64,000 nt of DNA from a phage: the sequence record PZ347661.1; one strand, written 5' to 3'. Within the stretch, counting starts at the first letter, position 1. Each line of letters starts with the position of its first letter. The translations under genes were made by a program, and so were the position numbers. The notes beneath the pieces were generated by a model. That model was given only the letters and a program-made list of their open reading frames with translations. It made no database searches and had not been told where the DNA came from. Shown here in pieces: positions 1-16,376 of the stretch.

Positions 1-86
1 GGCTGAGGCTACACCCTTACACTCAACTAGCCCCCCCGGTATGTTGACGGTGTAGCCACCACCCTACCCCACCTTACACGTTACAC

Positions 87-99
87 GTTGCTCCGCAAC
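87..99 (+). promoter_or_regulatory. Hairpin promoter candidate of the N4 virion-RNAP type (stem GTTGC/GCAAC, loop TCC, then CTATGG)
   Basis: Inverted repeat with 3-nt loop read directly; same architecture and CTCCGC core as the hairpins at 756, 1016 and 5877; lies ~45 nt upstream of the first ORF. Confidence 0.5.
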
Positions 100-142
100 C
101 TATGGACATGTCGTCCTATCATCAACTATTGGAGCTATCATC

Positions 143-466
143 ATGACTACTCAAGCTACTGTACGTATGACCGCAGGAACTTTACTTGGTACTGTTAACT
201 CAGCTGCTACTACTGTTGCAGATACATTCAGCACAGCAACTAAAGCAGTAGGTATGCTTAATTCATATGTTAGTACGATGGCAGAGAAACAAGCCATTCG
301 TACTAAATTAGAAATGCATACCTTTGTTAATAAACTGGCAGAGGAAACAGCTATGACTGAGACTCTGCGTAAGAAAAGTATCGAGGAATTCTGCAAGGAT
401 TCAGAGAACGCTCGAATCTATAACGCAGAATATTCCAAAGTAATCGACATCCTGACTAAAGACTAA
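143..466 (+). CDS. hypothetical early protein (107 aa)
   Basis: ORF with GGAG RBS about 8 nt upstream; between hairpin promoter and terminator. Confidence 0.6.
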   Translation: MTTQATVRMTAGTLLGTVNSAATTVADTFSTATKAVGMLNSYVSTMAEKQAIRTKLEMHTFVNKLAEETAMTETLRKKSIEEFCKDSENARIYNAEYSKVIDILTKD

Positions 467-473
467 GTCATCA

Positions 474-499
474 AGGAGACTCTTCGGAGTCTCCTTTTA
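474..499 (+). terminator. intrinsic terminator (9-bp GC-rich stem, TTCG loop, T tract)
   Basis: AGGAGACTC-TTCG-GAGTCTCCT followed by TTTTAT. Confidence 0.7.
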
Positions 500-554
500 T
501 AAACATTAGATAGATAATCAAAAGTAGATAACTATCTACTTTAGGAGAAGTAAA

Positions 555-749
555 ATGTCCGTGACAGAATGCAAATCTGAAAGTCCAGGAGAAGCTTTGG
601 AAAGATTCGAAAAAGCTTTGATGGATTACCAACACGCTTTAACAATTCATCGCTTAGACTTCGATACAGAAGACGATTTGCCTGATTTAAAGGCAAAGAT
701 GGAAACTGCTAAGGAAGAACTTCTAACCTGGTTGTCTTACATTCCTTAA
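555..749 (+). CDS. hypothetical early protein (64 aa)
   Basis: ORF with AGGAG RBS. Confidence 0.55.
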   Translation: MSVTECKSESPGEALERFEKALMDYQHALTIHRLDFDTEDDLPDLKAKMETAKEELLTWLSYIP

Positions 750-755
750 AACCCG

Positions 756-770
756 AGAAGCTCCGCTTCT
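756..770 (+). promoter_or_regulatory. Hairpin promoter candidate of the N4 virion-RNAP type (stem AGAAGC/GCTTCT, loop TCC, then GTTGG)
   Basis: Perfect 6-bp inverted repeat with 3-nt loop; complementary strand reads GAAGCGGAGCTTC; conserved with 1016 and 5877. Confidence 0.6.
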
Positions 771-794
771 GTTGGATACAATTAGGAGACAACC

Positions 795-1010
795 ATGAAC
801 GTAGAAAATATCCGTATAATTGAGAATTGCTTTAGTAATAAACCTGTAGACCTCAGCAACGCAAGAAGGTCTACAGATAAAGAGTATGGAAAGTTTCTAT
901 CCTTACTCGATGAGTATCGTATGCAAGGGCATGTTGAATTACATGCTTATCTGCATAACTCAGGCTACTTCATGGACAAACTGGAAGCTAATACAGGCTG
1001 TCCATTCTGA
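795..1010 (+). CDS. hypothetical early protein (71 aa)
   Basis: ORF with AGGAGA RBS. Confidence 0.55.
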   Translation: MNVENIRIIENCFSNKPVDLSNARRSTDKEYGKFLSLLDEYRMQGHVELHAYLHNSGYFMDKLEANTGCPF

Positions 1011-1015
1011 AAACC

Positions 1016-1030
1016 AGACGCTCCGCGTCT
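1016..1030 (+). promoter_or_regulatory. Hairpin promoter candidate of the N4 virion-RNAP type (stem AGACGC/GCGTCT, loop TCC, then TATGG)
   Basis: Perfect 6-bp inverted repeat with 3-nt loop; same pattern as 756 and 5877. Confidence 0.6.
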
Positions 1031-1166
1031 TATGGAGTGCGTAGCACAACCTTCGAAGAAGGTTATGATGTAAATGCATCCACTAATCATTGAACTTTTA
1101 TCCTTTTGTTTGGGTGTTCTCACCGACGAGTTCACCCGTAAATCACATAAATCTGGAGAGTACAAA

Positions 1167-1547
1167 ATGTCTATTCAAAAATTCACTTTCGGTCAATCTA
1201 ACGCTGCTGCTACCACTGCTAAAGCTGATAAACCAAAAGCTCAGTTATGGCTGAACATTGGTTATGTAGCTAATGAAGGCTCTGATGATGAGAAATTCAT
1301 CTCTCTGCCTACTGGTATTCCACTGGATACTCAGGAACCACTGCCTACTAACAGTAGCAATGCTGACTTCCGTGCTATGCGTTGTGCACAGAACGATTTG
1401 CTGGAACAGTTAATCGCATATGCTCAGAACCTGGAACCAGGTGAAGAAGGTATCATTAACCTGCAAGTTCAACTTCGTCGTGTGAAAGCAGAGGCTGCTG
1501 ACATCCCAGCAGACGAGAATAAATATGCTCGTAAACTGACTTTCTAA
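1167..1547 (+). CDS. hypothetical early protein (126 aa); track ORF 1074 trimmed to the ATG with GGAG RBS
   Basis: ATG at 1167 preceded by CTGGAGAG; position would fit N4 early transcription factors but no motif supports that. Confidence 0.55.
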
Positions 1548-1557
1548 TCAACTACTA

Positions 1558-1586
1558 GACTCCCTTCGGGGAGTCTTTTATTTTTA
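1558..1586 (+). terminator. intrinsic terminator (GACTCCC-TTCG-GGGAGTC plus T tract)
   Basis: 7-bp stem, tetraloop, TTTTATTTTT tail. Confidence 0.7.
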
Positions 1587-1690
1587 ACTATGCGAAAGGC
1601 TATTTCTACTTTTTGAGTATCTTTAGACGAAGGGTACTGAAACAGTAACCAGATAGATATAGATTTATATTAGATGAAGGAGTAACCATT

Positions 1691-1876
1691 ATGCGTACAA
1701 TTTGTAACCGTTATAATTCACAGAAGATGATTGTTATGTTGCAACCATGGGGCAGTAAGATGACACTAAATGCACGTTGGCAGGTATCTGTAAAAGATGA
1801 GAATGGTCACTGCTATGACCACTTCTTTGTAACTAAACCTACTCGTAAACAAATTCGTAAACTTCATAAGGCATAA
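1691..1876 (+). CDS. hypothetical protein (61 aa)
   Basis: ORF with GAAGGAG RBS. Confidence 0.5.
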   Translation: MRTICNRYNSQKMIVMLQPWGSKMTLNARWQVSVKDENGHCYDHFFVTKPTRKQIRKLHKA

Positions 1877-1880
1877 GACT

Positions 1881-2099
1881 ATGTTGGACTTCATTGCGTT
1901 TGTAATACTCTGTTATGTGCTATATCGCCTACGTGGTTACATCCTCAATGGAGCCAAGTGGGTAAGAACTAAGCTGGTACTTATCTGTAAGTTACCTGTT
2001 GTATTCGTTAAGTGTCTGTTTGCTTCCATCATAGCCAAAGAAGTTCGTAAGCAACTCTGGGCTAAGGAAGCAGAAGAGTTTGCAAAGAGGAACCAGTGA
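1881..2099 (+). CDS. hypothetical small hydrophobic protein (72 aa)
   Basis: ORF tightly packed after previous gene; weak RBS. Confidence 0.4.
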   Translation: MLDFIAFVILCYVLYRLRGYILNGAKWVRTKLVLICKLPVVFVKCLFASIIAKEVRKQLWAKEAEEFAKRNQ

Positions 2100-2278
2100 T
2101 ATTCACTAACATAGAAGATGCCATTGAAGAATGTATCTTTCGTAGGTATCACACTGGTATACAGAAACGACACTATGGTGTTGTACAACTCAATGGCTAT
2201 CAAATGGTTGTAAGAATTGTACGTAAGAGTAAACCTTTTAACTTTATGTGGAGTACTAAATCATGCGTAAGTCATTAA
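2096..2278 (+). CDS. hypothetical protein (60 aa, GTG start)
   Basis: ORF with non-ATG start overlapping previous stop. Confidence 0.3.
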   Translation: MIFTNIEDAIEECIFRRYHTGIQKRHYGVVQLNGYQMVVRIVRKSKPFNFMWSTKSCVSH

Positions 2279-2391
2279 TCATGGGAACCAAAGAAGACGT
2301 ACAAAAGATGAAAGAGCGTCTGGCTGCTAAGAAACAGACATCTGAACCAGTACGTAAGATTGTTACCTTCAATCATCCGTGTATCAAATAA
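2263..2391 (+). CDS. hypothetical small basic protein (42 aa, below the ORF-track cutoff)
   Basis: ATG with GGAG about 9 nt upstream; ends right before a terminator. Confidence 0.3.
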   Translation: MRKSLIMGTKEDVQKMKERLAAKKQTSEPVRKIVTFNHPCIK

Positions 2392-2396
2392 CAAGG

Positions 2397-2427
2397 AGTC
2401 CTCCATTAGGGGGACTTCTATTTTTTA
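2397..2427 (+). terminator. intrinsic terminator (8-bp stem, ATTA loop, T tract)
   Basis: AGTCCTCC-ATTA-GGGGGACT followed by TCTATTTTTT. Confidence 0.6.
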
Positions 2428-2502
2428 TTCCTGAATAGTTAGACCCGAAGGGTCAACCGTACGAAGTACGGTTAGATATGTATTTAAATAGGAGAAATAA
2501 CC

Positions 2503-2820
2503 TTGAATGAAATTGTTTGTATACTTCCTCAATCAGCTAAGATAGCTGACCGGAATATACGTATCCACTTACCATTCCCATTAAGCAATCCATTCACTCG
2601 TAATGAAAGAACCACAGTAGAAGACGTGGAGGTAGCTTATGAGGCTTACCTTCGTAATCGTCTTATTAGTGGTGACAAGTTAATTACAGCAGAGATGGAA
2701 AGGATTGCATCCTTTGTAACAGATAGTACAGGTAAGCCTGTTGGCTTAATTGGTACTGAATCTGATGTGAATGTTATTCGTAAAATATTAATGGAGGCAC
2801 TAAGTGAACAACCTCAGTGA
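2503..2820 (+). CDS. hypothetical protein (105 aa, TTG start)
   Basis: ORF with AGGAG 8 nt upstream of TTG. Confidence 0.45.
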   Translation: MNEIVCILPQSAKIADRNIRIHLPFPLSNPFTRNERTTVEDVEVAYEAYLRNRLISGDKLITAEMERIASFVTDSTGKPVGLIGTESDVNVIRKILMEALSEQPQ

Positions 2821-3037
2821 TGTAATTGTAGGTAATGAGATATTCGTTGACCGAAAAGGTTATGCCCGAATTAAACTAAAGGGTACTAACAGAACTATTG
2901 TTCGTAAGGTGTACTCTAAACCTTTTAGCAATTTCTCTATTGATGAAGTACGTATTAATAACAGGATGTACTTCATAGATAGTAAAGTATCTGTATGTCA
3001 TACAGATGGTAAAACCTCTCTTGAATATACTTACTAA
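2804..3037 (+). CDS. hypothetical protein (77 aa, GTG start)
   Basis: ORF overlapping previous gene end. Confidence 0.35.
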   Translation: MNNLSDVIVGNEIFVDRKGYARIKLKGTNRTIVRKVYSKPFSNFSIDEVRINNRMYFIDSKVSVCHTDGKTSLEYTY

Positions 3038-3049
3038 GGAATAAACAAA

Positions 3050-3271
3050 ATGTTGTTCAGCACTAATTATGGTATTTGCCCGATTTGCAATAAAGGAAGA
3101 GGAGTTGCTAATCATAAGAAGTGTAGTCGTATTCTACAGAAACAACGGAACCAGAAAGAATGGGATAAGATATTGGAAAACCAACACAAAGATGAGTTCA
3201 AGAAGACAGCTGTTAAGGCATCTACTCAGCTCATTCGTCGTACTAACTTCATAGAAGGTTATCAGAAATGA
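3050..3271 (+). CDS. hypothetical protein with N-terminal CPICNK motif (73 aa)
   Basis: ORF with AAGGA RBS; Cys pair may indicate a zinc ribbon. Confidence 0.5.
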   Translation: MLFSTNYGICPICNKGRGVANHKKCSRILQKQRNQKEWDKILENQHKDEFKKTAVKASTQLIRRTNFIEGYQK

Positions 3272-3624
3272 AACTAATCGTAGCTGGTGGAAGAGACTTC
3301 GTAGATACCAATCGTATGATTGAGGAATTACAGAAGTTAGTAAATTCAGGGAATATACCTGAATGCCCAGAATTAGTATGTGGCATGGCTCGTGGAGCAG
3401 ATATATTAGCTTTCCGTCTATGGAAATCTGCAAATATGCAGATACATGTATTCCCTGCTGAATGGGATACCTATGGCAAGTCTGCTGGATTCCGTAGGAA
3501 TAAAGAAATGGGTGAATTTGCAGATGCTGCTGTATGTTTCTGGGATGGTAAATCCAAAGGAACCAAGCACATGATTGATATCATGAATAGGCTTAATAAA
3601 CCTGTATACGTTGTGAGGTACTAA
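3268..3624 (+). CDS. Rossmann-like SLOG/DUF2493-like protein (118 aa)
   Basis: LIVAGGRDF ... CGMARGADILA pattern resembles LOG/DprA-type nucleotide-binding folds; family assignment is an inference. Confidence 0.5.
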   Translation: MKLIVAGGRDFVDTNRMIEELQKLVNSGNIPECPELVCGMARGADILAFRLWKSANMQIHVFPAEWDTYGKSAGFRRNKEMGEFADAAVCFWDGKSKGTKHMIDIMNRLNKPVYVVRY

Positions 3625-3882
3625 ATGATTATTACATATCCTACAGGCAAGAACGTAGATTATATGGGACATACTATCCAAGTACCACATTGGGTTAAGT
3701 ATATAGCTTTATATACTCGGCAATATAAAAGTGCTAATACCTCATTAATAGGATTCTCTAAGAAACCTAAGCTAACAGAAAACAATATCTGGGTATCCTC
3801 TGGGAGACAAGAAGAGATTGGTTTTTGTGATTTGAGTATTATCGATAATAACGTTTACCTAACGCTGGAGAAAGTAGCATGA
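3625..3882 (+). CDS. hypothetical protein (85 aa)
   Basis: ORF in tight operon. Confidence 0.45.
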   Translation: MIITYPTGKNVDYMGHTIQVPHWVKYIALYTRQYKSANTSLIGFSKKPKLTENNIWVSSGRQEEIGFCDLSIIDNNVYLTLEKVA

Positions 3883-4070
3883 ATATTGAAAATTATGAAA
3901 TCACTTTAGTAACAGCAGATAGTAAAACTGTGATTAAAAAACAATTAAATAATGACCCCGAGATGCTTAACTGGGTTGCAGAGCAATTTGCTGATGTTAA
4001 CTCAGCACAGGTAACCATACGGAATATGTCAGGAAAAGTAGTAGCATTTACAGGCAAGGAGCCAGTATGA
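3879..4070 (+). CDS. hypothetical protein (63 aa)
   Basis: ORF, start overlaps previous stop. Confidence 0.45.
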   Translation: MNIENYEITLVTADSKTVIKKQLNNDPEMLNWVAEQFADVNSAQVTIRNMSGKVVAFTGKEPV

Positions 4071-4381
4071 AAACTATTTTAGTAGTCCATGATTCTACAT
4101 TTACTGATGTAGATAAGATGATGCGTAATATTGATTATGTATCTCAGACAAGCCAAGCATTCAATGAAGAGTTTACTCTGTACTGTAATGCTGAATCACC
4201 ACTGGTTCCTATCCTTAAGGAATCAGGTCTACCATTCTCTACAGAGAACTTCCCGGAAGAACCGGACTATGTAATCTCATTTATCTATGACTTACATGAT
4301 GGTTCTGAAACCAGTGAATTAGCTATGAACCAGTGGCGTAGTAAACGTCCTGTGTTCGCATTTCAGGTACTTAAGCCATGA
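4067..4381 (+). CDS. hypothetical acidic protein (104 aa)
   Basis: ORF, ATGA overlap coupling. Confidence 0.5.
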   Translation: MKTILVVHDSTFTDVDKMMRNIDYVSQTSQAFNEEFTLYCNAESPLVPILKESGLPFSTENFPEEPDYVISFIYDLHDGSETSELAMNQWRSKRPVFAFQVLKP

Positions 4382-4620
4382 TATATGAAGAATATTACGT
4401 ATTTAAAAAAGGAGATGAGTTTATAGCCATGCCTGATGATTACATTGATTGGCATACAACTCCAGTATTAAGCGAAGCATTTTCCGTACCTAACCTAGAA
4501 GAGGTTAATAAAGTAATGAACGGGGTAATGTTAACTAGAGGACTAGCTTATAAAATAGACGCATTAGAAGGAACTACTGTATGTAAAGTAGTTACATCTA
4601 TTGAGGTACTTAAACCATGA
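4378..4620 (+). CDS. hypothetical protein (80 aa)
   Basis: ORF, overlap coupling. Confidence 0.5.
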   Translation: MIYEEYYVFKKGDEFIAMPDDYIDWHTTPVLSEAFSVPNLEEVNKVMNGVMLTRGLAYKIDALEGTTVCKVVTSIEVLKP

Positions 4621-4997
4621 AGATTATGTCATTAGGTGACGACACCAATGCTTTACTAGGTGTATCTGCACGCCCAATCATCATTGTTAATAAACATCAC
4701 GGTAAATCCGGTGAGTATATTGGACGTGGCTCACCATTAGGCAATCCATTCGTTATTGGTAAAGACGGTTCGAGAGAACAGGTTATAGCCAAGTATCGAG
4801 TATGGCTTAATGAACAAATTATGAGAAAGAATCCAGTTGTACTGGATGAACTTAATCGTCTTGGTAATAAAGCCATTGACGAGAAAGGATTAGCCTTACA
4901 GTGCTTCTGCTATCCAAAACCATGTCATGGTGAGGTTATTAAAGAGAAGCTAGTAAAGGCTATGTATAACTACTTTGTAGAAAACCCAAAAGGATAA
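4617..4997 (+). CDS. DUF4326-like protein (126 aa)
   Basis: GRGSPLGNPF motif; family assignment from memory, needs HMM confirmation. Confidence 0.5.
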   Translation: MKIMSLGDDTNALLGVSARPIIIVNKHHGKSGEYIGRGSPLGNPFVIGKDGSREQVIAKYRVWLNEQIMRKNPVVLDELNRLGNKAIDEKGLALQCFCYPKPCHGEVIKEKLVKAMYNYFVENPKG

Positions 4998-5000
4998 TTT

Positions 5001-5360
5001 ATGAAAGAAATCCTAGTATTCACTACTAATACACTAGGGCAGCATACCAATGCTGCTGCCAAGCTAGCTTATAAGAAGCATGGTGCTCGCTGGGGTATGG
5101 CCTATGGTCATTACGGTAATAGCTTTGCCATTCCAGTAAGGGATGGCAGTGGTAACCGAATTAAAGAAGGTGCTATCTATGGCTTCGTTGAAGGCTTTAT
5201 TTCCTATGCATCTACTAATCCTCAGTGGGATTTCAAAGTAATGGGGGATGACTTTCTGGACCCATACCTGTTCAATAATGTCACTGGCAATGTGCTATTG
5301 CCAGAAGCATGGCGTAAATACTTAGGTGATGCTTACAACTACTGGGGAACCTCCTCATGA
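5001..5360 (+). CDS. hypothetical protein (119 aa)
   Basis: ORF with AAAGGA RBS. Confidence 0.55.
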   Translation: MKEILVFTTNTLGQHTNAAAKLAYKKHGARWGMAYGHYGNSFAIPVRDGSGNRIKEGAIYGFVEGFISYASTNPQWDFKVMGDDFLDPYLFNNVTGNVLLPEAWRKYLGDAYNYWGTSS

Positions 5361-5533
5361 CTAAAAAAGAGCGCAGTCAATTACAATCCTTAATACGTAA
5401 ACATGTAGCAGCTCAAGTTGCTCTATCATGGTCTGGTTCTCAAGATCCAGAAGACAGAGAAATAATTGAAGCCAATGCAGAGTATGCAAAGCGTAAATTA
5501 TACAATTGGATTTCAATGAGAGTAGACCAATAA
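5357..5533 (+). CDS. hypothetical small protein (58 aa)
   Basis: ATGA overlap with previous stop fills a gap without ORF-track entries. Confidence 0.35.
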   Translation: MTKKERSQLQSLIRKHVAAQVALSWSGSQDPEDREIIEANAEYAKRKLYNWISMRVDQ

Positions 5534-5607
5534 ATGGAGTTACTAACTTATTTAATAGTCCTATGGTCCATAGGTGGAACCACTGTATGGCTTATACCGG
5601 AGATACT

Positions 5608-5871
5608 ACCATGACATATGAAGAACTGTGGTCTGCTCAAGTCAGAGCCAGAGCACTCACACGGCATGACATCTATTGTGCATTACAAAATGAATTAAAG
5701 AGTCGTACTAAACTAGGCCACATATCTGGCTTCATCAAAATACCTATGACTAGCCTAGTCTGGCCTTATCAGAAGAAAAGTAATGAGTTTAATGGTAATG
5801 GTCTGCATGTACGCATCGACTACATTGGTAATGAAAATAGTATTCGTATTACCTTTTGGACCAAACGTTAG
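5608..5871 (+). CDS. hypothetical protein (87 aa; track ORF 5506 trimmed to ATG with GGAG RBS)
   Basis: ATG at 5608 preceded by CCGGAGATACTACC; start uncertain. Confidence 0.35.
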   Translation, partial: TMTYEELWSAQVRARALTRHDIYCALQNELKSRTKLGHISGFIKIPMTSLVWPYQKKSNEFNGNGLHVRIDYIGNENSIRITFWTKR

Positions 5872-5876
5872 GTAAT

Positions 5877-5891
5877 AGCTGCTCCGCAGCT
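5877..5891 (+). promoter_or_regulatory. Hairpin promoter candidate of the N4 virion-RNAP type (stem AGCTGC/GCAGCT, loop TCC, then TTTGG)
   Basis: Perfect 6-bp inverted repeat with TCC loop, immediately upstream of the RNAP II genes. Confidence 0.55.
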
Positions 5892-5924
5892 TTTGGTTAT
5901 TAATCATATTTAGGAGAATAAGCG

Positions 5925-6743
5925 ATGTACTCATCTATTGAACATCAGAAGCAACTTGAAATCCTTTTCAACAAGAATCAATTACTCCCTCGCATGAGGA
6001 AGGAATTCGAGGACTCCGAAGAAATTGACTTTAAGGCATTTGCTGCCTATTTAGAAATTGATTATAAGCTGCTCATTGATGCAATGGTGCAGATTGCCCT
6101 ACATAAACGTGCTGACATTCAGACTATGATTGGCTCTCTCATGAGTCACTCAGATGATGCTCAGTACATCGCTGACTGTCTGTATAAGATGGCAGAGAAT
6201 GACTGCTTCAACTATGACCCTACCATCGACAAGTTCGGTGTTATCTATGAGATTAGTGAAGATGTTCAGATGGAACTGGAAGCATTCCAGTATCCTTTGC
6301 CTATCGTAAGTGCTCCTAAGCCTGTTAAGTGTAACCGTGATACTGGTTACTACGAAAGCAGAGGTAGCATCATCCTCAAGAAGAACCATCATGAGATGGA
6401 TGTCTGTCTTGATCACATCAACCGCATGAATAACCAACGTCTCTGCATTAACTGGGACGTTGCTAACTATGTAAAAGACTCTCGTCCTAATATGGATAAA
6501 CCTAAAGAGGGTGAAACCCGTCAGGACTATGAGAAACGTGTCAAAGCCTTTGAGAAGTACAGCCGTACAGCTAAGGAAGTAATGGAGTTAGTGACCAAGG
6601 AAGGTAATAACTTCTCTCTGGCTCACAAATATGACAAACGTGGGCGTACATATGCCTGTGGCTACCACATCAACTATCAGGGAACCAGTTACAACAAAGC
6701 TGTTCTGGAGTTCGCTGATAAGGAGCTAGTAAACAATGATTAA
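5925..6743 (+). CDS. phage RNA polymerase II small subunit (N4 gp15-like, 272 aa)
   Basis: Size and position match the N4 two-subunit RNAP II (recalled sizes 269 and 404 aa); adjacent to the large subunit, which carries polymerase motifs. Confidence 0.65.
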   Translation: MYSSIEHQKQLEILFNKNQLLPRMRKEFEDSEEIDFKAFAAYLEIDYKLLIDAMVQIALHKRADIQTMIGSLMSHSDDAQYIADCLYKMAENDCFNYDPTIDKFGVIYEISEDVQMELEAFQYPLPIVSAPKPVKCNRDTGYYESRGSIILKKNHHEMDVCLDHINRMNNQRLCINWDVANYVKDSRPNMDKPKEGETRQDYEKRVKAFEKYSRTAKEVMELVTKEGNNFSLAHKYDKRGRTYACGYHINYQGTSYNKAVLEFADKELVNND

Positions 6744-6846
6744 TCATCGTGCAGTAGCTGACTTCTACGCTCACAGAGAACTAGTGTTAAAACGTATTAA
6801 CGAAGCTCTCAAACGTGAGGCAGAGGCCAAACGTAAACGTAAATAA
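6736..6846 (+). CDS. hypothetical small basic protein (36 aa) between the RNAP II subunit genes
   Basis: ATG with AGGAGC RBS; very short, speculative. Confidence 0.25.
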   Translation: MINHRAVADFYAHRELVLKRINEALKREAEAKRKRK

Positions 6847-6900
6847 ATCCAATAAGCAGGCTCTCCATAGTGGGGAGCCAAGAAGCAAAAGGAACATAAA

Positions 6901-8118
6901 ATGCAACTGTTAACCGCTAAAGAATACCTGAAAGTAGATATCGCCAATAACTATGGCTTAGATAAGAAGACATGGGATGAACGTATTGCCTGGTTCGATG
7001 AGAACGAAGCTAACCTGCTTAATCTGGTAGATGAAGCTGAAGATTCTGCTCTGTTCTTTGCAGGTGTAAATGCATGGAAAGACATGAAAGCTGGTAAACC
7101 TATCGGTTATGCCGTAGCTCTGGATGCTACATCATCTGGCTTACAGTTACTGGCTTGCCTGACTGGTGACCGTTCTGCTGCTGAACTGTGTAACGTAGTT
7201 AACTATATGGGTGAGAATGGTAAACCCTTACGTCGTGATGCTTATACAGTTATCTATCACAAGATGCTGGACATCCTTGGTGAAGCATCACGTATTAAAC
7301 GTAGTGACACTAAGCAGGCAGTTATGACTGCATTCTACGGTTCAGAAGCCAAGCCTAAAGAAGTATTCGGTGAAGGTATTCGTCTCAAGACTTTTGAGAA
7401 TGTAATGGAAACTGTTGCTAGTGGTCCTTGGGCACTTAACAAGTTCTTACTGCAATGTGGTAATCCTGATGCTAACCGTTACGTATGGGTACTTCCTGAC
7501 AACTTCCATGCTGTCATTAAGGTCATGGTTCCAGAAGTACAGACTGTTAACTTCTTAGGTAAACCATTCGACATCACTCGTATGGTTCAGGGTACTGAAG
7601 AGAAGACTCGTATGCTCTCTGCTAACATTACCCACTCTATTGATGGGATGGTAGTACGTGAGATGCTGCGTCGTTGTAACTTCGACCCTAAACTGGTTGC
7701 CTATGTACGTGAACTATGTGATATCGGGCCAAGCAATTATCCTGCTATCGAAGGGAACCTGGAAATGACTATGGAAATTTGGAATCATTATGAGAAGTCT
7801 GGGTTCCTGTCACTATCTATTCTGGACTACCTTGACCCGAATACCATTGCATTGGTAGACCGTCAGGTAATAGCAGATATGATTGACACTCTGCCTAAGA
7901 AACCATTCCCTGTAATGACTGTACATGACTGCTTCCGTTGTCATCCTAACTACGGTAATGACCTGCGTCGTCAGTACAATCAGATTCTGTCTGATATTGC
8001 TAAGAGTGACCTACTGGGCTTCATCTTGTCTCAGGTACTAGGACAAGAGTTCTCCGCTGGTAAGCTGGATGACAGCCTCTGGCAGGACATTCTTGAAACA
8101 GACTATGCATTAAGTTAA
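6901..8118 (+). CDS. phage RNA polymerase II large subunit (N4 gp16-like, 405 aa)
   Basis: KQAVMTAFYGS resembles motif B and TVHDCF motif C of T7-like single-subunit RNAPs; size matches N4. Confidence 0.8.
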   Translation: MQLLTAKEYLKVDIANNYGLDKKTWDERIAWFDENEANLLNLVDEAEDSALFFAGVNAWKDMKAGKPIGYAVALDATSSGLQLLACLTGDRSAAELCNVVNYMGENGKPLRRDAYTVIYHKMLDILGEASRIKRSDTKQAVMTAFYGSEAKPKEVFGEGIRLKTFENVMETVASGPWALNKFLLQCGNPDANRYVWVLPDNFHAVIKVMVPEVQTVNFLGKPFDITRMVQGTEEKTRMLSANITHSIDGMVVREMLRRCNFDPKLVAYVRELCDIGPSNYPAIEGNLEMTMEIWNHYEKSGFLSLSILDYLDPNTIALVDRQVIADMIDTLPKKPFPVMTVHDCFRCHPNYGNDLRRQYNQILSDIAKSDLLGFILSQVLGQEFSAGKLDDSLWQDILETDYALS

Positions 8119-8125
8119 TAAACTA

Positions 8126-8159
8126 GCCTCATTCCTTCGGGAGTGAGGCATATTTTTTG
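8126..8159 (+). terminator. intrinsic terminator (10-bp stem with TTCG loop, T tract)
   Basis: GCCTCATTCC-TTCG-GGAGTGAGGC followed by ATATTTTTT. Confidence 0.65.
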
Positions 8160-8175
8160 CTTGGAGGTAATAACT

Positions 8176-8358
8176 ATGCTAATCCCTTTTGAAGTAATCT
8201 CTCAGCTAATACTGATAGTTTTATCTGTACTGGTTCTGTCTACAATAGTTCATGCCCACAAATCTAAGTTTGCTTGCTACTGTTATGGAGCATACTCGCT
8301 AGGCTGCTTTGTAATGGCAGGATGGATAGCTTTTGCTGTCTACTGTGTAAACAACTAA
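8176..8358 (+). CDS. small membrane protein (60 aa)
   Basis: ATG with GGAGG RBS; two hydrophobic segments. Confidence 0.4.
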   Translation: MLIPFEVISQLILIVLSVLVLSTIVHAHKSKFACYCYGAYSLGCFVMAGWIAFAVYCVNN

Positions 8359-8386
8359 CCCTCTTAACGGAGGGTTTTTATTTTTA
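8357..8386 (+). terminator. intrinsic terminator
   Basis: AACCCTC stem, GAGGGTT partner, TTTTATTTTT tail. Confidence 0.6.
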
Positions 8387-8432
8387 TTCATCATGTATAC
8401 TAATCCTGCTATTTACTTATGAGGAAATTGAT

Positions 8433-9266
8433 ATGCCAACTTTGAAAGTAGGTTTTAACAAAACCACTAATGTTGCAACTGTACTGGATGCCAGTGGTTC
8501 TATCCCAGGTGGTTCCGTAGAAGTAGGAACCTTTGTACACCCAGATGCTACCTACCCAGATAGCTTAGTTATCTATCATGGTGTTCGTGACCTGCTGTAT
8601 AAACGTTCTGCTAAAGACCCTAGTAAAGAAGGCTCCTGGCCTAACAACATCGTAGATATGCAGTCTATCTCTATTGATATGAAAGCTACTCCACGACTGA
8701 TTATTGCTACTAAACTGCCTCGTGTAATCTCTGCTATCGAAGGTGAAGACATTAACTGGCACGTTGATGTAGCAGGTGGTAAAGCACCATTTACTTATAA
8801 ATGGCAATTCAAAGCTAATACCGCTGGTGCAGCATTCGCTGATATTAGCTCCAGTACTAACCCATCTGCTGCTACTGCAACATTGACTCTTAATGATGTA
8901 ACAGCTTCTTCTGCTGGTACTTATAAAGTGATTGTTACTGATGCTAATGGAACCACGGTAGAAGATGAGTCGCTGCTGGCTGTAGGTTATTATGAAGCAA
9001 GCTCTCTGGTAGCTACTCCTGCTTCACTGGCTCTGTCTGTTGCTGCTGATACTACTGATGGCAAAACCGTAACTATTGTTGCTATGCCTGTTGGTTCTTC
9101 TTCCGGTGCTTTGTCTATCAAGACTGCTCCAGATTCTGGTCGTGCTACGGCTACCATTGCTGGTAACGTACTGACAGTTAAACCAGTGGCTGCTGGTGAT
9201 GCTACTTCTGTAGTAGTTACCAATGGTACGGTAGATGTAACAATCCCTGTTACTGTTGCAGAGTAA
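8433..9266 (+). CDS. Ig-like domain protein, possible capsid decoration protein (N4 gp17-like, 277 aa)
   Basis: Thr/Ala/Val-rich beta-sandwich-like repeats (YKWQFKANTAG..., SAGTYKVIVTD); start trimmed to ATG with GAGG RBS; N4 encodes its decoration protein in this region. Confidence 0.55.
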   Translation: MPTLKVGFNKTTNVATVLDASGSIPGGSVEVGTFVHPDATYPDSLVIYHGVRDLLYKRSAKDPSKEGSWPNNIVDMQSISIDMKATPRLIIATKLPRVISAIEGEDINWHVDVAGGKAPFTYKWQFKANTAGAAFADISSSTNPSAATATLTLNDVTASSAGTYKVIVTDANGTTVEDESLLAVGYYEASSLVATPASLALSVAADTTDGKTVTIVAMPVGSSSGALSIKTAPDSGRATATIAGNVLTVKPVAAGDATSVVVTNGTVDVTIPVTVAE

Positions 9267-9288
9267 GAGTATTTCTTTTTGTGATTAT

Positions 9289-9313
9289 AGCCCTCCTTAG
9301 TGAGGGCTTTCTT
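9289..9313 (+). terminator. intrinsic terminator
   Basis: AGCCCTC-CTTAGT-GAGGGCT then TTCTT. Confidence 0.5.
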
Positions 9314-9333
9314 GTATATATAGGAGAGTAAAA

Positions 9334-9648
9334 ATGACCCAGAAATTACGTGTATGGCACATCCCCCAAGTGCCAATGAAGGCATTTCATGTAGAGACTG
9401 ATAGTCTTCAGGAAGCTGTTAAGATTAAGAATGCGCTAGCAGACTACGATCTATTCCAATATGAGAACAACGTCAAAGGCGATTATGCTAATGCTAACGG
9501 TATTGAGATGTGGGATGAGTCCCTCACTGACCAAGACCTTATTGATATGGAATTGGATGACCGTTGGGTAGATTGGTATATTGAAACTGAAGAATATTTC
9601 TTTGATGACCCAGAAGAGTATCTGAATTATCTAGCCAAGCAAGTATGA
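9334..9648 (+). CDS. hypothetical acidic protein (104 aa)
   Basis: ORF with GGAGAG RBS. Confidence 0.55.
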   Translation: MTQKLRVWHIPQVPMKAFHVETDSLQEAVKIKNALADYDLFQYENNVKGDYANANGIEMWDESLTDQDLIDMELDDRWVDWYIETEEYFFDDPEEYLNYLAKQV

Positions 9649-9694
9649 TTGCTTTATTTGGGGCTATAAACCCTGAAATAAAACCCTCAAGTTT

Positions 9695-9725
9695 GACCTC
9701 CCTATTGAAGGGAGGTCTTTTTTTG
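9695..9725 (+). terminator. intrinsic terminator
   Basis: GACCTCCC-loop-GGGAGGTC followed by TTTTTTT. Confidence 0.7.
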
Positions 9726-9749
9726 ACTTAAACATCCTGGAGCCAGGAA

Positions 9750-9938
9750 ATGTATAAAGAGATTGCATTTTTCTCATTCTTACTTGGTGGTTTAATAGGT
9801 GCAGGAATTGTAGCTATTTCTAATACCTACTTTGGTTCTACTCCAAACTCTCTAACACAAACCCTCAAGCATGAATGTGAATTGAATATCCCTCGTAATC
9901 AAAACTGTGTAATGCAGTTCGTACCGGAGAAAAAATGA
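9750..9938 (+). CDS. small membrane protein (62 aa)
   Basis: ORF with hydrophobic N-terminal helix. Confidence 0.45.
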   Translation: MYKEIAFFSFLLGGLIGAGIVAISNTYFGSTPNSLTQTLKHECELNIPRNQNCVMQFVPEKK

Positions 9939-10195
9939 ATATTCATAACCTACGTTTGGTTGAAAAACTGTATGAAGAATACAACGACAACCGGCAGCAA
10001 TTAGCTAGTTTGAAGAAGTCACCACATATGGTGAAAGTATCATTCAATGATACGGATTTAGGACTACAAGCCCGTACAAGAATACTTCCTGAACTACTGT
10101 CCTTTTATCAAAAGAGGATTGCTGTTTTAGAAAAACGCTTTGAGCATTTAGGCGTAGATTTATCACCACTCCCAGATGAAGGAGAAGAAGAGTGA
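9935..10195 (+). CDS. hypothetical protein (86 aa)
   Basis: ORF, overlap coupling. Confidence 0.5.
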   Translation: MNIHNLRLVEKLYEEYNDNRQQLASLKKSPHMVKVSFNDTDLGLQARTRILPELLSFYQKRIAVLEKRFEHLGVDLSPLPDEGEEE

Positions 10196-10401
10196 AAGTA
10201 ACAAATCGTTCTGAGAACAATGAGGTAACTTTCGGTGATGTAGAGCCTGCTAATGGTTTTATTTATAACCAGACAGTGTGTCTAAAGATTCACTTACCTG
10301 AAGGTAAACCTGCTGCTGTTGCTGTAGAAACTGGCAAATCATTCTATCTATCAGCAAATACATATGTAACACCAATAAACCTGGAAGGATATTACCTTTG
10401 A
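10192..10401 (+). CDS. hypothetical protein (69 aa, GTG start)
   Basis: ORF overlapping previous stop. Confidence 0.4.
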   Translation: MKVTNRSENNEVTFGDVEPANGFIYNQTVCLKIHLPEGKPAAVAVETGKSFYLSANTYVTPINLEGYYL

Positions 10402-10583
10402 AACTTACCCAGTCCCAAGCAATCTTCCTTCGTATGGTTCAAGGTGGTTCTGCCACCAGCAACCGTAATAACAAAACCGCACAGTCTCTTAAGAAGCTGG
10501 GCTTAGTACAGTTCAATACTGGTCTTGGGTGGTCATTAACCCCTATCGGTGTACTTCAACTTAACGAAATGAAAGGTAACTAA
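10398..10583 (+). CDS. hypothetical protein (61 aa, TTG start)
   Basis: ORF with GGAAGGA upstream. Confidence 0.35.
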   Translation: MKLTQSQAIFLRMVQGGSATSNRNNKTAQSLKKLGLVQFNTGLGWSLTPIGVLQLNEMKGN

Positions 10584-10913
10584 ATGAAAACTTTACTTAA
10601 AGGTATTGCAGTAGCCGCACTGATAGCTTTGGCCCCAAGTGCACAAGCAATTGAACCAGAACCAATTCTGGAAGGTGCTCAGGCTTATCTGGATGACACC
10701 CGTGATGCGTTCGGGCAAGGATTCTTCATGGGCAGTATGATCTCTTATATCGAGAGTACAAATAATTGCGTTCCTGAAGGTGTTAAGTATTCAGTCATTC
10801 TGCCTAAGATTGTCAAAGTAGTTATTTATGACTCTGCAATTCTCAAATTGAAGAATACATCTCAAATTGTTGTGTACTCAGTACACAAGGCATATCCCTG
10901 CACTAAATCTTAA
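10584..10913 (+). CDS. secreted/periplasmic protein with signal peptide (109 aa)
   Basis: N-terminus MKTLLKGIAVAALIALAPSAQA is a typical Sec signal with AQA cleavage site. Confidence 0.55.
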   Translation: MKTLLKGIAVAALIALAPSAQAIEPEPILEGAQAYLDDTRDAFGQGFFMGSMISYIESTNNCVPEGVKYSVILPKIVKVVIYDSAILKLKNTSQIVVYSVHKAYPCTKS

Positions 10914-10947
10914 TCAGTAATTCCATTAGCTTTAGGAGAGTAAGTAA

Positions 10948-12000
10948 ATGGCAAGCATTGACTCCTTGACTGTATGTAATTCACGTCAAGCTCGTAACTT
11001 TATTATCCGTGCCCTGAAAGCAGGTAACGTACCATTCCTGACTTCATCACCGGGCATGGGTAAATCTGCAATCATTCGTTCTATTGCAGAAGAATTTGGT
11101 ATGAAGCTGATAGACCATCGTCTGTCTACTTCTGCTCCAGAAGACCTTTCTGGCTTACCATTCCGCAATGGTGACCGTGCAGAGTTTATCCCATTCGCTG
11201 ACTTATTTCCTATTGAAGGGGATGCTGTACCGAAGGGTTATAATGGCTGGCTCCTGTTCCTCGATGAGTTCAACTCAGCTAAGAAAGAAGTAGTAGCTGC
11301 TGCATACAAACTGATTCTCGACCGTATGACTGGTCAGAAAAAACTACATCCTAATGTGATGATTGTCTGTGCAGGTAACAAAGCTACTGACCGTGCCATT
11401 GTTAACCCACTGGGTACTGCAATGCAGTCCCGTGTGGTTCACTTCGAAATGGAACTTAACTTCGACATCTTTGTTGAAGACGTAATGATTCCTCAGCAAT
11501 GGGATGAACGTCTGGTTGCATTCTTACATGCTAACCCCGGTTACCTGCATGACTTCGACCCGGCACATAAGAACAAAACATTCTGTTGTCCTCGTACCTG
11601 GGACTTTGTTAACAAAGACCTCAAGAACTTGCCAGAAGGTGCTCTGCCTGATGAAGATTCTATCTACTATGCAGGTCACGTTACTGCTGGTAAGGCTACA
11701 GAATTTGTTCAGTTTACCCAGGTGTACAATCGTATCATTACGATTGAGAAGGTAGTCAAAGACCCACTGGGCTGTGCACTACCGGATGATAACAACCTGT
11801 GTTGGGCTACTGTTAACCATCTGGCTAACAAAACTACTGAAGAGAACTTTGTTGATGTTCTTCGGTATATTGAACGCTTTAAAACGTTCACCCATAGGAT
11901 TCTATACTTCCGTACAGTAGGCAATGCATTACCAGATCTTCAGGCTACCCCTGAATGGCGTAAGGCTGCTGCTAATATCTCTCGCTACATTCACGGATAA
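10948..12000 (+). CDS. AAA+ ATPase, MoxR-like (350 aa)
   Basis: Walker A SPGMGKS and Walker B LLFLDEFN. Confidence 0.75.
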   Translation: MASIDSLTVCNSRQARNFIIRALKAGNVPFLTSSPGMGKSAIIRSIAEEFGMKLIDHRLSTSAPEDLSGLPFRNGDRAEFIPFADLFPIEGDAVPKGYNGWLLFLDEFNSAKKEVVAAAYKLILDRMTGQKKLHPNVMIVCAGNKATDRAIVNPLGTAMQSRVVHFEMELNFDIFVEDVMIPQQWDERLVAFLHANPGYLHDFDPAHKNKTFCCPRTWDFVNKDLKNLPEGALPDEDSIYYAGHVTAGKATEFVQFTQVYNRIITIEKVVKDPLGCALPDDNNLCWATVNHLANKTTEENFVDVLRYIERFKTFTHRILYFRTVGNALPDLQATPEWRKAAANISRYIHG

Positions 12001-12007
12001 TCACAAC

Positions 12008-13183
12008 ATGAACCAATTTCCTCAGCACACACTTAGTGATGAACAACTCATGCGTGAGTATGACCGTATTCAGGCCCAAGCCTTCCTGGGCAAGTCTGCT
12101 GCGTTCTTTGGTTCATTACTGTGTAGTCTTAAATTCTCATGGAAACGTGAGGATTGTCCCACTGCATGTACTGATGGGATAGAACTTCATTTCAACCCAG
12201 ACTTCTTTATCTGGATGTGTCCAGATGTAAGAGAAACAGTATTAATGCACGAACTATGGCATGTAGCATATCTACATGACATCCGTCGTGGAAGCCGTGA
12301 CCCGGAAGTCTGGAACCAGGCATGTGACCACTTCATTAACCTTCAGTTAGAAGAGGATGGTTACAAGTTCACTGGTATCGACAAGGGCATTTGCAAAGAC
12401 CCTAAATATAAAGATTGGGTCGAAGAAGACATCTACGATGACCTGATGAAGAACCCTCAGAAAAGGCAGAAGCCGTCAGGGGGTGCTGGAGCAGGTCTTG
12501 CTGGCGACATGAAATCCCCTACTTCGGGGCAGTCCCAGGGTGCTGTCGTCAACAACGTAGTACGTGCAATGCAGAGCCAGAAGATGGCTGGTGGACAGAT
12601 GCCCGGTAAGGGTGCTGGTCGTATGGAAGAGGTTATTACCCAATTCCTTAAACCAGTAGTTCCCTGGCAGGAAGTTCTGATAAACTTCTTTACCGACATT
12701 GATGACACCCATTATACGTGGGCCAGACCTAATCGTCGTTACACTGACATCTATCTACCTTCCATGGAAGATGATGAAGGACGCTTACGACACTTAGCCT
12801 ACTTTGAGGATGTATCTGGTTCCATTAGTAGTGATGACTCTCTGCGTTTTAACTCAGAGGTTGCTTACGTTAAGAGCCAATTCAATCCTAAGAAGATGTC
12901 CTTAATTACCTTCGACGATGTTATCCAGGAAGAAATAGACATCACTGAAGAAGATACTTTCGAAGAGATTAAGATTACTGGTCGTGGTGGTACAAACCTG
13001 GAACCAGTACGCGAATGGATTATTAAGAATAAGCCAACCGCTGCAATCATATTCTCCGATATGTATGTTCGCCCAATGGAAGAATTACCATTTGATATCC
13101 CCATCATCTGGTGTGTTCTGAATAATCCCAATGCTACCGTACCTTTTGGGGAGGTAGTTCATATCCCTAAAGGAATGAAATAA
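12008..13183 (+). CDS. zincin-like (HExxH) plus VWA-domain protein (392 aa)
   Basis: MHELWHVAYLH motif, Gly/Gln-rich linker, C-terminal DxSGS MIDAS-like motif (FEDVSGSISS); start trimmed to ATG at 12008. Confidence 0.6.
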   Translation: MNQFPQHTLSDEQLMREYDRIQAQAFLGKSAAFFGSLLCSLKFSWKREDCPTACTDGIELHFNPDFFIWMCPDVRETVLMHELWHVAYLHDIRRGSRDPEVWNQACDHFINLQLEEDGYKFTGIDKGICKDPKYKDWVEEDIYDDLMKNPQKRQKPSGGAGAGLAGDMKSPTSGQSQGAVVNNVVRAMQSQKMAGGQMPGKGAGRMEEVITQFLKPVVPWQEVLINFFTDIDDTHYTWARPNRRYTDIYLPSMEDDEGRLRHLAYFEDVSGSISSDDSLRFNSEVAYVKSQFNPKKMSLITFDDVIQEEIDITEEDTFEEIKITGRGGTNLEPVREWIIKNKPTAAIIFSDMYVRPMEELPFDIPIIWCVLNNPNATVPFGEVVHIPKGMK

Positions 13184-13689
13184 TGGTTGTTAACGGTAAT
13201 TCTCTATATCGTTCCTCTCAGTTGCTGGATGTTCCAGACCATAAGGTATCTGAACACGGTGTAAGCTATGGATTAGGTGAAGCTGGTTATGATATTCGTA
13301 TCAAACAAGATATTACCTTCTATCGCTTATTTGGGTTGATTCCAATGGTGAAGGTCGTTGATGGAAATCAAGTATCACGCCATCTCGGTAAGTTCACATT
13401 GGCTTCAGCAATTGAGAAGTTCAACATGTCCCCATCCTGTGTAGCTATCGTTCACGATAAGTCTACCTGGGCAAGACGTGCATTATCTGTGTTCAATACC
13501 GTAATAGAACCAGGATGGAAAGGGTATCTTACCCTCGAACTGGTCTATCATGGTCGCAAGAAATTGCATATCCCAGCTGGTTCTGGGATAGCTCAAGTAT
13601 TATTTCATCTGGTTCAGGAACCTGCTAATTACAATGGCAAGTATATGAACCAGGAAAACAAACCAGTAGCTGCAAGAAGCAGCAAATAA
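13183..13689 (+). CDS. dCTP deaminase / dUTPase-fold protein (168 aa)
   Basis: IEPGWKGYLTLEL motif typical of the Dcd/dUTPase superfamily. Confidence 0.6.
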   Translation: MVVNGNSLYRSSQLLDVPDHKVSEHGVSYGLGEAGYDIRIKQDITFYRLFGLIPMVKVVDGNQVSRHLGKFTLASAIEKFNMSPSCVAIVHDKSTWARRALSVFNTVIEPGWKGYLTLELVYHGRKKLHIPAGSGIAQVLFHLVQEPANYNGKYMNQENKPVAARSSK

Positions 13690-13698
13690 GGAAACAAC

Positions 13699-13908
13699 AT
13701 GTCAGTATTTCAAGTAACTCATGCAACCTCAGATGTACGTTTAACCATTAATGCTGCAAATGTAATTGCAGTAGAACAGATTCCACAGTCTGACCATGCA
13801 CGCGTCATATTTGTAGATAATAACTATATAGAAACCAAAGAAACCTATCGTTCAGTACGCAATTACCTGAAGAAAGCTCTTGCTCCTGCAAGCAAAGACG
13901 CTGAGTAA
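13699..13908 (+). CDS. hypothetical protein (69 aa)
   Basis: ORF with AGGAAAC RBS. Confidence 0.5.
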   Translation: MSVFQVTHATSDVRLTINAANVIAVEQIPQSDHARVIFVDNNYIETKETYRSVRNYLKKALAPASKDAE

Positions 13909-13920
13909 GTAGCTGCCTAA

Positions 13921-13946
13921 ATAGCCCAACATAGTTGGGCTATTTG
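13921..13946 (+). terminator. terminator-like hairpin
   Basis: TAGCCCAA-CATAG-TTGGGCTA then TTTG; short T tract. Confidence 0.45.
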
Positions 13947-13981
13947 TGAAGAAACTAACTCAACCTCACATAGGAACCATC

Positions 13982-14224
13982 ATGGAATCTTTAGCAGCAA
14001 TCCTTGTTTTCTTATTCATATTGGCTGTATACCTTATCCCTACTATCATTGCTTTTTCACGAGGCCATGTCTCTAAGTGGGGCATTGGTGTACTCAATAT
14101 CGTATTAGGCTGGTCACTGGTATTCTGGGTAGTAGCACTGATTTGGTCACTGTCCAACAAAGGGCAGAACCAGGTTACAAATGTAACCGTTGTTCAAACC
14201 AATGGTGGCAGTAAAACAGAGTAA
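13982..14224 (+). CDS. membrane protein with two TM helices (80 aa)
   Basis: ATG with AGGA RBS; hydrophobic segments. Confidence 0.5.
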   Translation: MESLAAILVFLFILAVYLIPTIIAFSRGHVSKWGIGVLNIVLGWSLVFWVVALIWSLSNKGQNQVTNVTVVQTNGGSKTE

Positions 14225-14296
14225 CTAATCGTAATAGTCTCATGAGGCTATTACTGGAAGTTACTTCCAGCTCATTGCTTATCCATCTCCTAATCC

Positions 14297-14323
14297 AAGC
14301 CCACCTAACCCGTGGGCTTTTTT
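14297..14323 (+). terminator. intrinsic terminator
   Basis: AAGCCCAC-loop-GTGGGCTT followed by TTTTT. Confidence 0.65.
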
Positions 14324-14339
14324 AATTACAGGTACTCTT

Positions 14340-14720
14340 ATGTCAAACAGACGAAATGGTAAGTCTATCCTGCAAGGACTGGACTTCAGTAAGCTGGAAC
14401 AAACTGCAATGCTTGCTTTAGGTAAAACTATCCATGACCAAGTGGAGAGTAAAATTGAATTAGATCTTTATGCAACAATGCAGACTCTTATTCAGAAAAA
14501 ATGGATTACTAGCAGACTTTTTCCTTCATACATTCCCCCAGAACCTCATCTGAAATCTAAGGTAGACCGAATCATAGATAAGTTCTGGCTTAACCCATAC
14601 GGGGATGATATGCAACTTTATCTGACTCAAATACAAAAGAATCCTCATACTAAGGATGTGTTCAAGGGTAAAAGTACTACCCATCACTACCCCTGGTATA
14701 GAAGAGGTAGTAAATACTAA
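14340..14720 (+). CDS. hypothetical protein (126 aa)
   Basis: ORF. Confidence 0.5.
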   Translation: MSNRRNGKSILQGLDFSKLEQTAMLALGKTIHDQVESKIELDLYATMQTLIQKKWITSRLFPSYIPPEPHLKSKVDRIIDKFWLNPYGDDMQLYLTQIQKNPHTKDVFKGKSTTHHYPWYRRGSKY

Positions 14721-15163
14721 TGCGTATCCCATTCCTAAGAAAAAGGGAACGAAATCCTGTTCTTTATAATAAAGGCATAGAGGATGAGTATGCACTCAAC
14801 AGTAAAGCTCGTTCCTACACAACAAAATTATTTATGGGGACTAAAAACCCTGATAGATTACTGGACTTTGTTTTTGAACAAGTCTTTATCATATACAGCT
14901 TAGCTATGACTGCTGGTTCACAAGAAGTAAGTGATAAGGCAAGAGATGCTCTCTGTATGCTCCGTAAAGAGTATGAAGCCCTCATGTATGAAGACTTGTA
15001 CTCCTTTAAAAAAGAAACCGCTGTAGCGTGTTCTGTGGCTCTTACTGAAGGTGTAGCAGTATTACAAGAACTACCTCGTAGTGAGTTTAAGCTGGTATAT
15101 GTTCAGGTTAAGAGAATCACAGAGACTAGAAGTGGTATCACCAACTATCTAAGGTCATTCTAA
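14720..15163 (+). CDS. hypothetical protein (147 aa)
   Basis: ORF, coupled to neighbours. Confidence 0.5.
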   Translation: MRIPFLRKRERNPVLYNKGIEDEYALNSKARSYTTKLFMGTKNPDRLLDFVFEQVFIIYSLAMTAGSQEVSDKARDALCMLRKEYEALMYEDLYSFKKETAVACSVALTEGVAVLQELPRSEFKLVYVQVKRITETRSGITNYLRSF

Positions 15164-16107: not shown

Positions 16108-16343
16108 AAAAACTAGCTCTATACGCAATGCTAATTAGTACCTTACTTACACTAACCTACGCATACAAAGTTGCCTTTGTCGTAGAAACAGATATGCAGT
16201 TCATTCGAGCTAGTATTCTGTTCTTTGTAAGTGAAATTGGTTTATGGTGTGTCTACTACTTTGCTCGTGATTATGAAGCGATTCGTGAGCATGATGAAGC
16301 AAAGGAACGAATGAGACGCTTCATTGAAGAAAATAGTAAGTAA
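16104..16343 (+). CDS. small membrane protein (79 aa)
   Basis: Two hydrophobic helices; ATGA coupling. Confidence 0.5.
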   Translation: MKKLALYAMLISTLLTLTYAYKVAFVVETDMQFIRASILFFVSEIGLWCVYYFARDYEAIREHDEAKERMRRFIEENSK

Positions 16344-16348
16344 ACTTA

Positions 16349-16376
16349 AGACCTCCTCCGGGAGGTCTTTTTTTTG
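16349..16376 (+). terminator. intrinsic terminator
   Basis: GACCTCC-TCCG-GGAGGTC followed by TTTTTTTT. Confidence 0.7.

Follow-up and report, generated by a model that had tools for sequence, protein, structure and literature searches.

Do the short inverted repeats near the left end of this phage genome serve as promoters for an RNA polymerase injected from the virion, like those of coliphage N4? The window analysed here, 64,000 nucleotides of sequence record PZ347661.1, makes up the leftmost 64 kb of the genome of a G7C-like (Gamaleyavirus, Schitoviridae) relative of N4. Its first 2.4 kb matches 84 phage records, the best of which are E. coli/Shigella Gamaleyavirus (G7C group) phages with 91–96% identity, and its position 1 aligns with position 1–3 of the N4 and G7C-group records, coinciding with the deposited left end of N4 and of several G7C-group phages. 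A sequence-only reading of this DNA had proposed three hairpins as promoters of the virion RNA polymerase (vRNAP). We find four, and judged from their sequence they are very probably vRNAP promoters of a G7C-group N4-like coliphage.

Hairpin sites and the N4 promoter rules

The four hairpin sites are all intergenic and on the + strand, lie within the first 5.9 kb of the left end, and have gp1, gp2, and RNAPII genes downstream (Table 1). Each has a perfect stem (5, 6, 6, and 6 bp) and a loop of 3 nt. The coordinates and sequences previously given for the hairpins at 87–99, 756–770, and 1016–1030, with 5–6 bp stems and a TCC loop, are exact. The TGG-type motif noted after each of them is xxxTGG at all three when aligned on the loop, with the T at -1 and the GG at +1/+2 (104–105, 774–775, and 1034–1035). 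All three hold up, but a fourth site at 5877–5891 had been missed. The predicted start G is located 11 nt past the central loop base at all four sites, and the second G 12 nt past it; hence all four carry GG at the predicted +1/+2 (from 104, 774, 1034, and 5895), positions that are predicted from sequence. The distance from the hairpin end to the next ATG is 44, 25, 44, and 34 nt for sites 1, 2, 3, and 4, respectively. The proposed spacing of about 40–60 nt to an ORF thus describes sites 1 and 3, but site 2 is closer, and the added site 4 is at 34 nt. Sites 2 and 3 begin 6–7 nt past stop codons, right after ORFs 555–749 and 795–1010. In DNA folding predictions, the template strand of the sites adopts exactly the described hairpin. 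The energies are modest, ranging from -3.6 to -5.7 kcal/mol, in a folding model that gives no credit for the special stability of the loop.

Table 1. Features of the window that bear on early transcription.
Feature	Position	Strand	Description
Site 1 hairpin	87–99	+	GTTGC-TCC-GCAAC, 5-bp stem; predicted start G104
gp1 homologue	143–466	+	66% identity to N4 gp1; phrog_5020
Intrinsic terminator after gp1	473–496	+	10-bp stem, UUCG loop, UUUUAU; -16.3 kcal/mol, z = -5.0; matches SP5M annotation
Site 2 hairpin	756–770	+	AGAAGC-TCC-GCTTCT, 6-bp stem; predicted start G774
71-aa accessory early ORF	795–1010	+	phrog_20790, E = 2e-51; annotated gp1.2 in G7C
Site 3 hairpin	1016–1030	+	AGACGC-TCC-GCGTCT, 6-bp stem; predicted start G1034
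gp2 homologue	1074–1547	+	66% identity to N4 gp2 over 161 aa; phrog_4099
Intrinsic terminator after gp2	1557–1576	+	-14.1 kcal/mol, z = -4.6; annotated in SP5M
Third early-region intrinsic terminator	2394–2419	+	-18.2 kcal/mol, z = -5.0; annotated in SP5M
Site 4 hairpin	5877–5891	+	AGCTGC-TCC-GCAGCT then TTTTGG, 6-bp stem; predicted start G5895
RNAPII (middle RNA polymerase) subunit, N4 gp15 homologue	5925–6743	+	phrog_2166 'N4-like RNA polymerase', E = 3e-117; annotated in relatives
vRNAP gene	38013–48830	-	likely ATG at 48830; 3,611-codon open frame reaches 48848 from TTG

The heptamer GCTCCGC by itself is not significantly enriched on the two strands of the window (4 observed versus 2.7 expected), and the test was therefore replaced by one for hairpin plus core. 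Counting only GCTCCGC cores within a perfect stem of 5 bp or more gives four in the window, versus a mean of 0.038 and a maximum of 1 in 1000 dinucleotide-preserving shuffles. A chance origin of the four hairpins is excluded. Scanning both strands of the full 64 kb under looser rules, which allowed one stem mismatch and a TCC or TTC loop together with -8C and +1G, returned no further promoter hairpins beyond the four. Hairpins with a TCC or GGA loop are also found at 23962, 30600, 34258, and 54524; they lack the GC core and were rejected as promoters.

The promoter determinants of N4 vRNAP were drawn from a 2015 review (PMC4496689) and a 2026 cryo-EM paper (PMC13492108). In the N4 promoters P1, P2, and P3, inverted repeats flank a common GC-rich heptamer with its centre at -11, and the polymerase specifically recognises -11A/G, -10G, -8G, and +1C of the template strand (PMC4496689). 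The N4 hairpin has a 3'G:C5' closing pair and a loop with a 3'A and a 5'G, it passes from double to single strand between -5 and -4, and transcription starts eight nucleotides downstream of -8 (PMC4496689). On the non-template strand these rules give the consensus C(-13) T C/T C G C(-8), followed by seven bases and then G(+1). All four sites read CTCCGC from -13 to -8 on the non-template strand and GAGGCG on the template strand (-12A, -11G, -10G, -9C, and -8G), and every published determinant of sequence and structure is present at each of them. As the four sites fit the N4 rules without exception, transcription is predicted to start at G104, G774, G1034, and G5895.

The N4 genome carries P1 at coordinate 90 (GTTGC TTC GCAAC TTATGG), P2 at 557 (AGAAGC TCC GCTTCT TTTGG), and P3 at 4546 (AGCTGC TCC GCAGCT TTTGG). 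The assignment of P2 is confirmed by a template oligonucleotide whose reverse complement is GAAGCTCCGCTTCTTTTGG (PMC13492108). Alignment with these promoters, a check that the earlier reading had suggested, matches sites 1, 2, and 4 to P1, P2, and P3, respectively. Alignment of sequence and flanks identifies site 1 as the orthologue of P1 and site 4 as that of P3, the latter with an identical hairpin, while site 2 has both its hairpin and its upstream flank identical to those of P2. By sequence and position, sites 1, 2, and 4 are orthologues of the three N4 promoters. Shared by N4 and the window are the core GC-T(C/T)C-GC centred at -11, the 3-nt loop, a stem of 5–7 bp, and GG eight bases past -8. 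In both, the promoters occupy the leftmost ~8% of the genome in identical orientation, upstream of gp1, gp2, and RNAPII. Differences are found in the promoter number (four in the window versus three in N4), in the loop (TCC at site 1 versus TTC in P1), and in the maximum stem (5–6 bp versus up to 7 bp). Position -3 is G at site 2 and T in P2, and the N4 structure has no base contacts in the stretch including -3 (PMC4496689).

Upstream of site 1, positions 7–86 form a strongly conserved left-end block common to N4, G7C, and SP5M. It consists of GGCTACACCCTTACAC, a run of seven C, and CCTACCCCACCTTACACGTTACACG, in that order, and its tandem TTACACG repeat adjoins the hairpin. The block could serve as a signal for the genome end, for packaging, or for injection. 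The G7C record marks 1–1160 as containing the terminal repeat. A terminal repeat of similar length in the window phage would place second copies of site 1 and gp1, and perhaps of sites 2 and 3, at the right genome end, which is outside the 64-kb window.

The sites were also followed in relatives, namely 34 related viral contigs (IMG/VR) retrieved with the gp2 homologue as query, to which N4 was added. The number of intact promoters in relatives ranges from two to four, and some copies are degenerate. In G7C, the site before gp1.2 reads GCTGT TCC ACAGC with a T:A closing pair; extrusion in N4 requires the closing G:C pair (PMC4496689). A further G7C site carries C where the start is predicted. 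Such cases speak for the possibility that the class is right but that not all four hairpins of the window are active, for example with site 2 or 3 being a decaying duplicate, which would leave effectively three promoters like N4. We consider this unlikely, given that neither site 2 nor site 3 of the window has lost any known determinant or its perfect 6-bp stem, and that four intact sites are also kept in SP5M, KP8, and several metagenomic relatives. The site 3 hairpin recurs upstream of gp2 in many relatives.

Early genes, terminators, and predicted transcription units

With the four hairpins taken as vRNAP promoters, four transcription units are predicted from the sequence. Unit 1 would run from site 1 through the gp1 homologue to the strong terminator behind it. 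Unit 2 would start at site 2 and cover ORF 795–1010, which is absent from N4, and would lead directly into the site 3 hairpin with no terminator between them. Unit 3 would run from site 3 through the gp2 homologue to its terminator, and unit 4 from site 4 into the RNAPII subunit gene. The claim that terminators follow the downstream ORFs accordingly stands for gp1 and gp2, but not for ORF 795–1010. N4 gp1 and gp2 are RNAPII cofactors, and gp1, gp2, and RNAPII constitute the N4 middle transcription machinery (PMC4496689); hence the cascade logic is preserved in the window. ORF 555–749 has no PHROG match and no hairpin promoter of its own, and is located between the terminator after gp1 and site 2. 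Possibly it is transcribed by read-through, and possibly it is no gene at all; with this ORF left without a promoter, the early map is not fully explained.

The gp2 homologue has an alternative internal start, Met at 1167, and the phrog_4099 profile starts at residue 32. The 31-residue N-terminal extension (1074–1166) is conserved with the annotated N4 gp2 start, while the SP5M annotation of gp2 begins at the internal Met, which has the better ribosome-binding site.

The intrinsic terminators nearby have stems of 8–11 bp, tetraloops, and U-runs. It could be argued that the promoter-like hairpins likewise function at the RNA level, either as intrinsic terminators or by marking upstream transcripts for processing, for sites 2 and 3 are directly past ORFs, and a terminator-like scan picks up site 4 since TTTTGGTTATT comes next. 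This is very improbable. The RNA folds of sites 2 and 3 are unremarkable, with z scores of -0.7 and -1.3 versus about -5 for the true terminators, and there is no U-run after sites 1–3, the TTTTGG of site 4 being the only one. Measured against a rho-independent terminator, i.e., a GC-rich stem with a direct U-run, the hairpins were rejected. Moreover, an RNA role leaves unexplained the invariant strand-specific TCC loop, the GC core, the GG at a fixed distance, and the orthology to mapped N4 starts.

Three other perfect hairpins with a C-GAA-G loop are found on the + strand at 1048–1064, 2442–2454, and 2455–2473, with stems of 7, 5, and 8 bp, respectively. The first falls in the gp2 leader, downstream of the predicted site 3 start, and the other two are in tandem just after the third terminator. 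They were rejected as vRNAP promoters because the rules failed on either strand. The corresponding intergenic region of N4 has nothing comparable, and an exact-match search of the retrieved related loci found no copy.

Relative to N4, the window adds two ORFs (555–749 and 795–1010) and one promoter between gp1 and gp2. ORF 555–749 belongs to a 210-bp insert versus N4 (530–575), just before the P2-type hairpin (window 545–760). GAGAAG, the left-arm sequence of the P2 hairpin, flanks the insert at 545–550 and 755–760. Ahead of gp2 there is also a second cassette, consisting of ORF 795–1010 and the extra promoter at 1016. It looks as if early genes were gained modularly at the promoter. As a tentative proposal, to which we give somewhat less than even weight, the vRNAP regulon might grow and shrink by promoter-plus-ORF cassettes at the hairpins, which would double as recombination junctions. 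If so, new early genes could plug into transcription by the injected polymerase.

Stem covariation and the virion RNA polymerase

A site list based on stems would bias the counts of base pairs, so the sites in relatives were re-selected by core only, with no stem requirement, and by core plus GG. The unique contexts of the core heptamer on the + strand are bimodal: 47 have at least three extra pairs and 23 have zero or one, while none has exactly two. The contexts on the - strand decay as by chance, with 22, 12, 4, and 1 having zero, one, two, and three extra pairs, respectively. GG is present at +1/+2 in 43 of the 47 hairpin sites.

For covariation we used 45 sequences picked by core plus GG and blind to the stem. 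The pairs -15:-7, -16:-6, and -17:-5 are paired in 96–100% of them, with 4–5 pair types each, whereas -18:-4 is paired in 73% and -19:-3 in 40%. The loss of pairing beyond -17:-5 agrees with where the N4 hairpin gives way to single strand, between -5 and -4. These statistics indicate a functional stem of 5 bp with optional extensions, as the N4 structure predicts. The covariation score is 0.479 versus 0.126 in shuffles, was reached by none of 500 shuffles, and drops to only 0.07–0.12 in slid registers. In the 34 related contigs, the core is invariant, and base changes in the stem leave its pairing intact. Specifically, the window, N4, and G7C share the P1 stem GTTGC/GCAAC, which is replaced by CATGC/GCATG in SP5M, and the P3 stem GCTGC/GCAGC is compensated to GGTGC/GCACC in G7C. 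The conservation in related phages that the sequence-only reading had called for is therefore present, and it comes with compensatory stem changes.

That perfect inverted repeats in intergenic, promoter-proximal positions are instead double-stranded palindromic operators, bound without extrusion by a dimeric regulator of phage or host origin, is barely credible: a dimer would conserve the arm sequence, whereas the arms vary yet stay complementary, which is the signature of selection on structure, the core GCTCCGC is asymmetric because its TCC loop is not palindromic, and the sites occur in a single strand orientation.

The assignment of the hairpins as vRNAP promoters also involves the polymerase. 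The gene had been placed at 38013–48848, and this placement is correct, as the product shares 68% overall identity with N4 gp50; the likely start is slightly inside the open frame (Table 1). In the polymerase domain (mini-vRNAP), the identity is 73%. Eight of nine N4 promoter-contact residues are identical in the window vRNAP. These include K114, R119, and W129, which belong to the -11 element, K268 of the intercalating hairpin, K849 and K850, which make backbone contacts, and D901 and R904 of the specificity loop. The catalytic residues checked are likewise conserved. The exception is K267, which is asparagine in the window (K267N; codon 44729–44731 on the - strand, residue 1372 counted from the TTG at 48848). 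In N4, K267 is one of two intercalating-hairpin lysines that melt the base of 7-bp stems. The promoter stems in the window have at most 6 bp.

Proposed initiation pathway and other N4-like phages

Sequence anatomy, statistics, orthology to N4 P1/P2/P3, stem covariation, and kept polymerase contacts are observations on the window and its relatives. Together, determinants, orthology, conservation, and contact residues support the earlier assignment of the hairpins to vRNAP. Gyrase-driven extrusion and dependence on host SSB are known for N4 only (PMC4496689), and by analogy the promoters in the window would depend on both. As in N4, the left genome end would enter the cell first, and host gyrase would supercoil the entered DNA, driving the extrusion of a small hairpin from each inverted repeat. 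The non-template hairpin would then be melted by host SSB, while the template-strand hairpin, with its 3'-AGG-5' loop, G:C closing pair, and G at -8, would stay. The injected vRNAP would bind this hairpin via the -11 element (K114, R119, and W129), the specificity loop (D901 and R904), and the β-intercalating hairpin, and would start with GTP eight bases past -8, i.e., at the four predicted start bases. The transcripts would encode the middle RNA polymerase, its cofactors gp1 and gp2, and the small accessory ORF, and would thereby open an N4-type cascade. The literature searched yielded neither transcript 5' ends nor biochemical data for the window phage or any other G7C-group phage, and initiation at the four G residues is hence a prediction.

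Sigma-70-like sites are depleted in 1–7000 (5 observed versus 21.3 ± 4.9 expected from dinucleotide shuffles) and in 7001–27000 (25 versus 41.8 ± 7.2). This fits early and middle regions that are unread by host RNA polymerase.

Comparable promoters are described for other N4-like phages. The Klebsiella N4-like phage KP8 has putative promoters P1–P4, which are predictions only (PMC6950046, Table 1). Their layout is like that of the window, with one before ORF1, two before the gp2 region, and one before the RNA polymerase subunit gene (PMC6950046). The KP8 P1 string ACGTTGCTCCGCAACCTATGGA is identical to window 85–106, and KP8 P2 differs from window 1014–1035 at the first bases only (PMC6950046). 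KP8 belongs to a different genus, and the stems of its third and fourth hairpins differ (GGCTGC and AAGCAGC; PMC6950046). In Pseudomonas phage LUZ7, early hairpin promoters were mapped by ONT-cappable-seq (PMC9163698). Like the window, LUZ7 has stems of at least 4 bp, a conserved 3-nt loop, a G start at a fixed distance, and more than the canonical three promoters (PMC9163698). It is of a distant genus, its start is 13–14 bp from the hairpin centre versus 11 in the window, and some of its nine early starts have no hairpin (PMC9163698).

The N4 mechanism is textbook, and with hairpin promoters predicted or mapped in many N4-like phages, the sites described here are known biology. The determinants and the four-promoter layout have already been published (KP8), and the window adds no new principle. 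The public records inspected (N4, G7C, and SP5M) annotate no promoters; the value of the four-site map is therefore one of annotation, not discovery. It places the first transcription events of the phage through four predicted start bases and three terminators, together with the early genes that they bracket, and is useful for the engineering and study of N4-like therapeutic coliphages.
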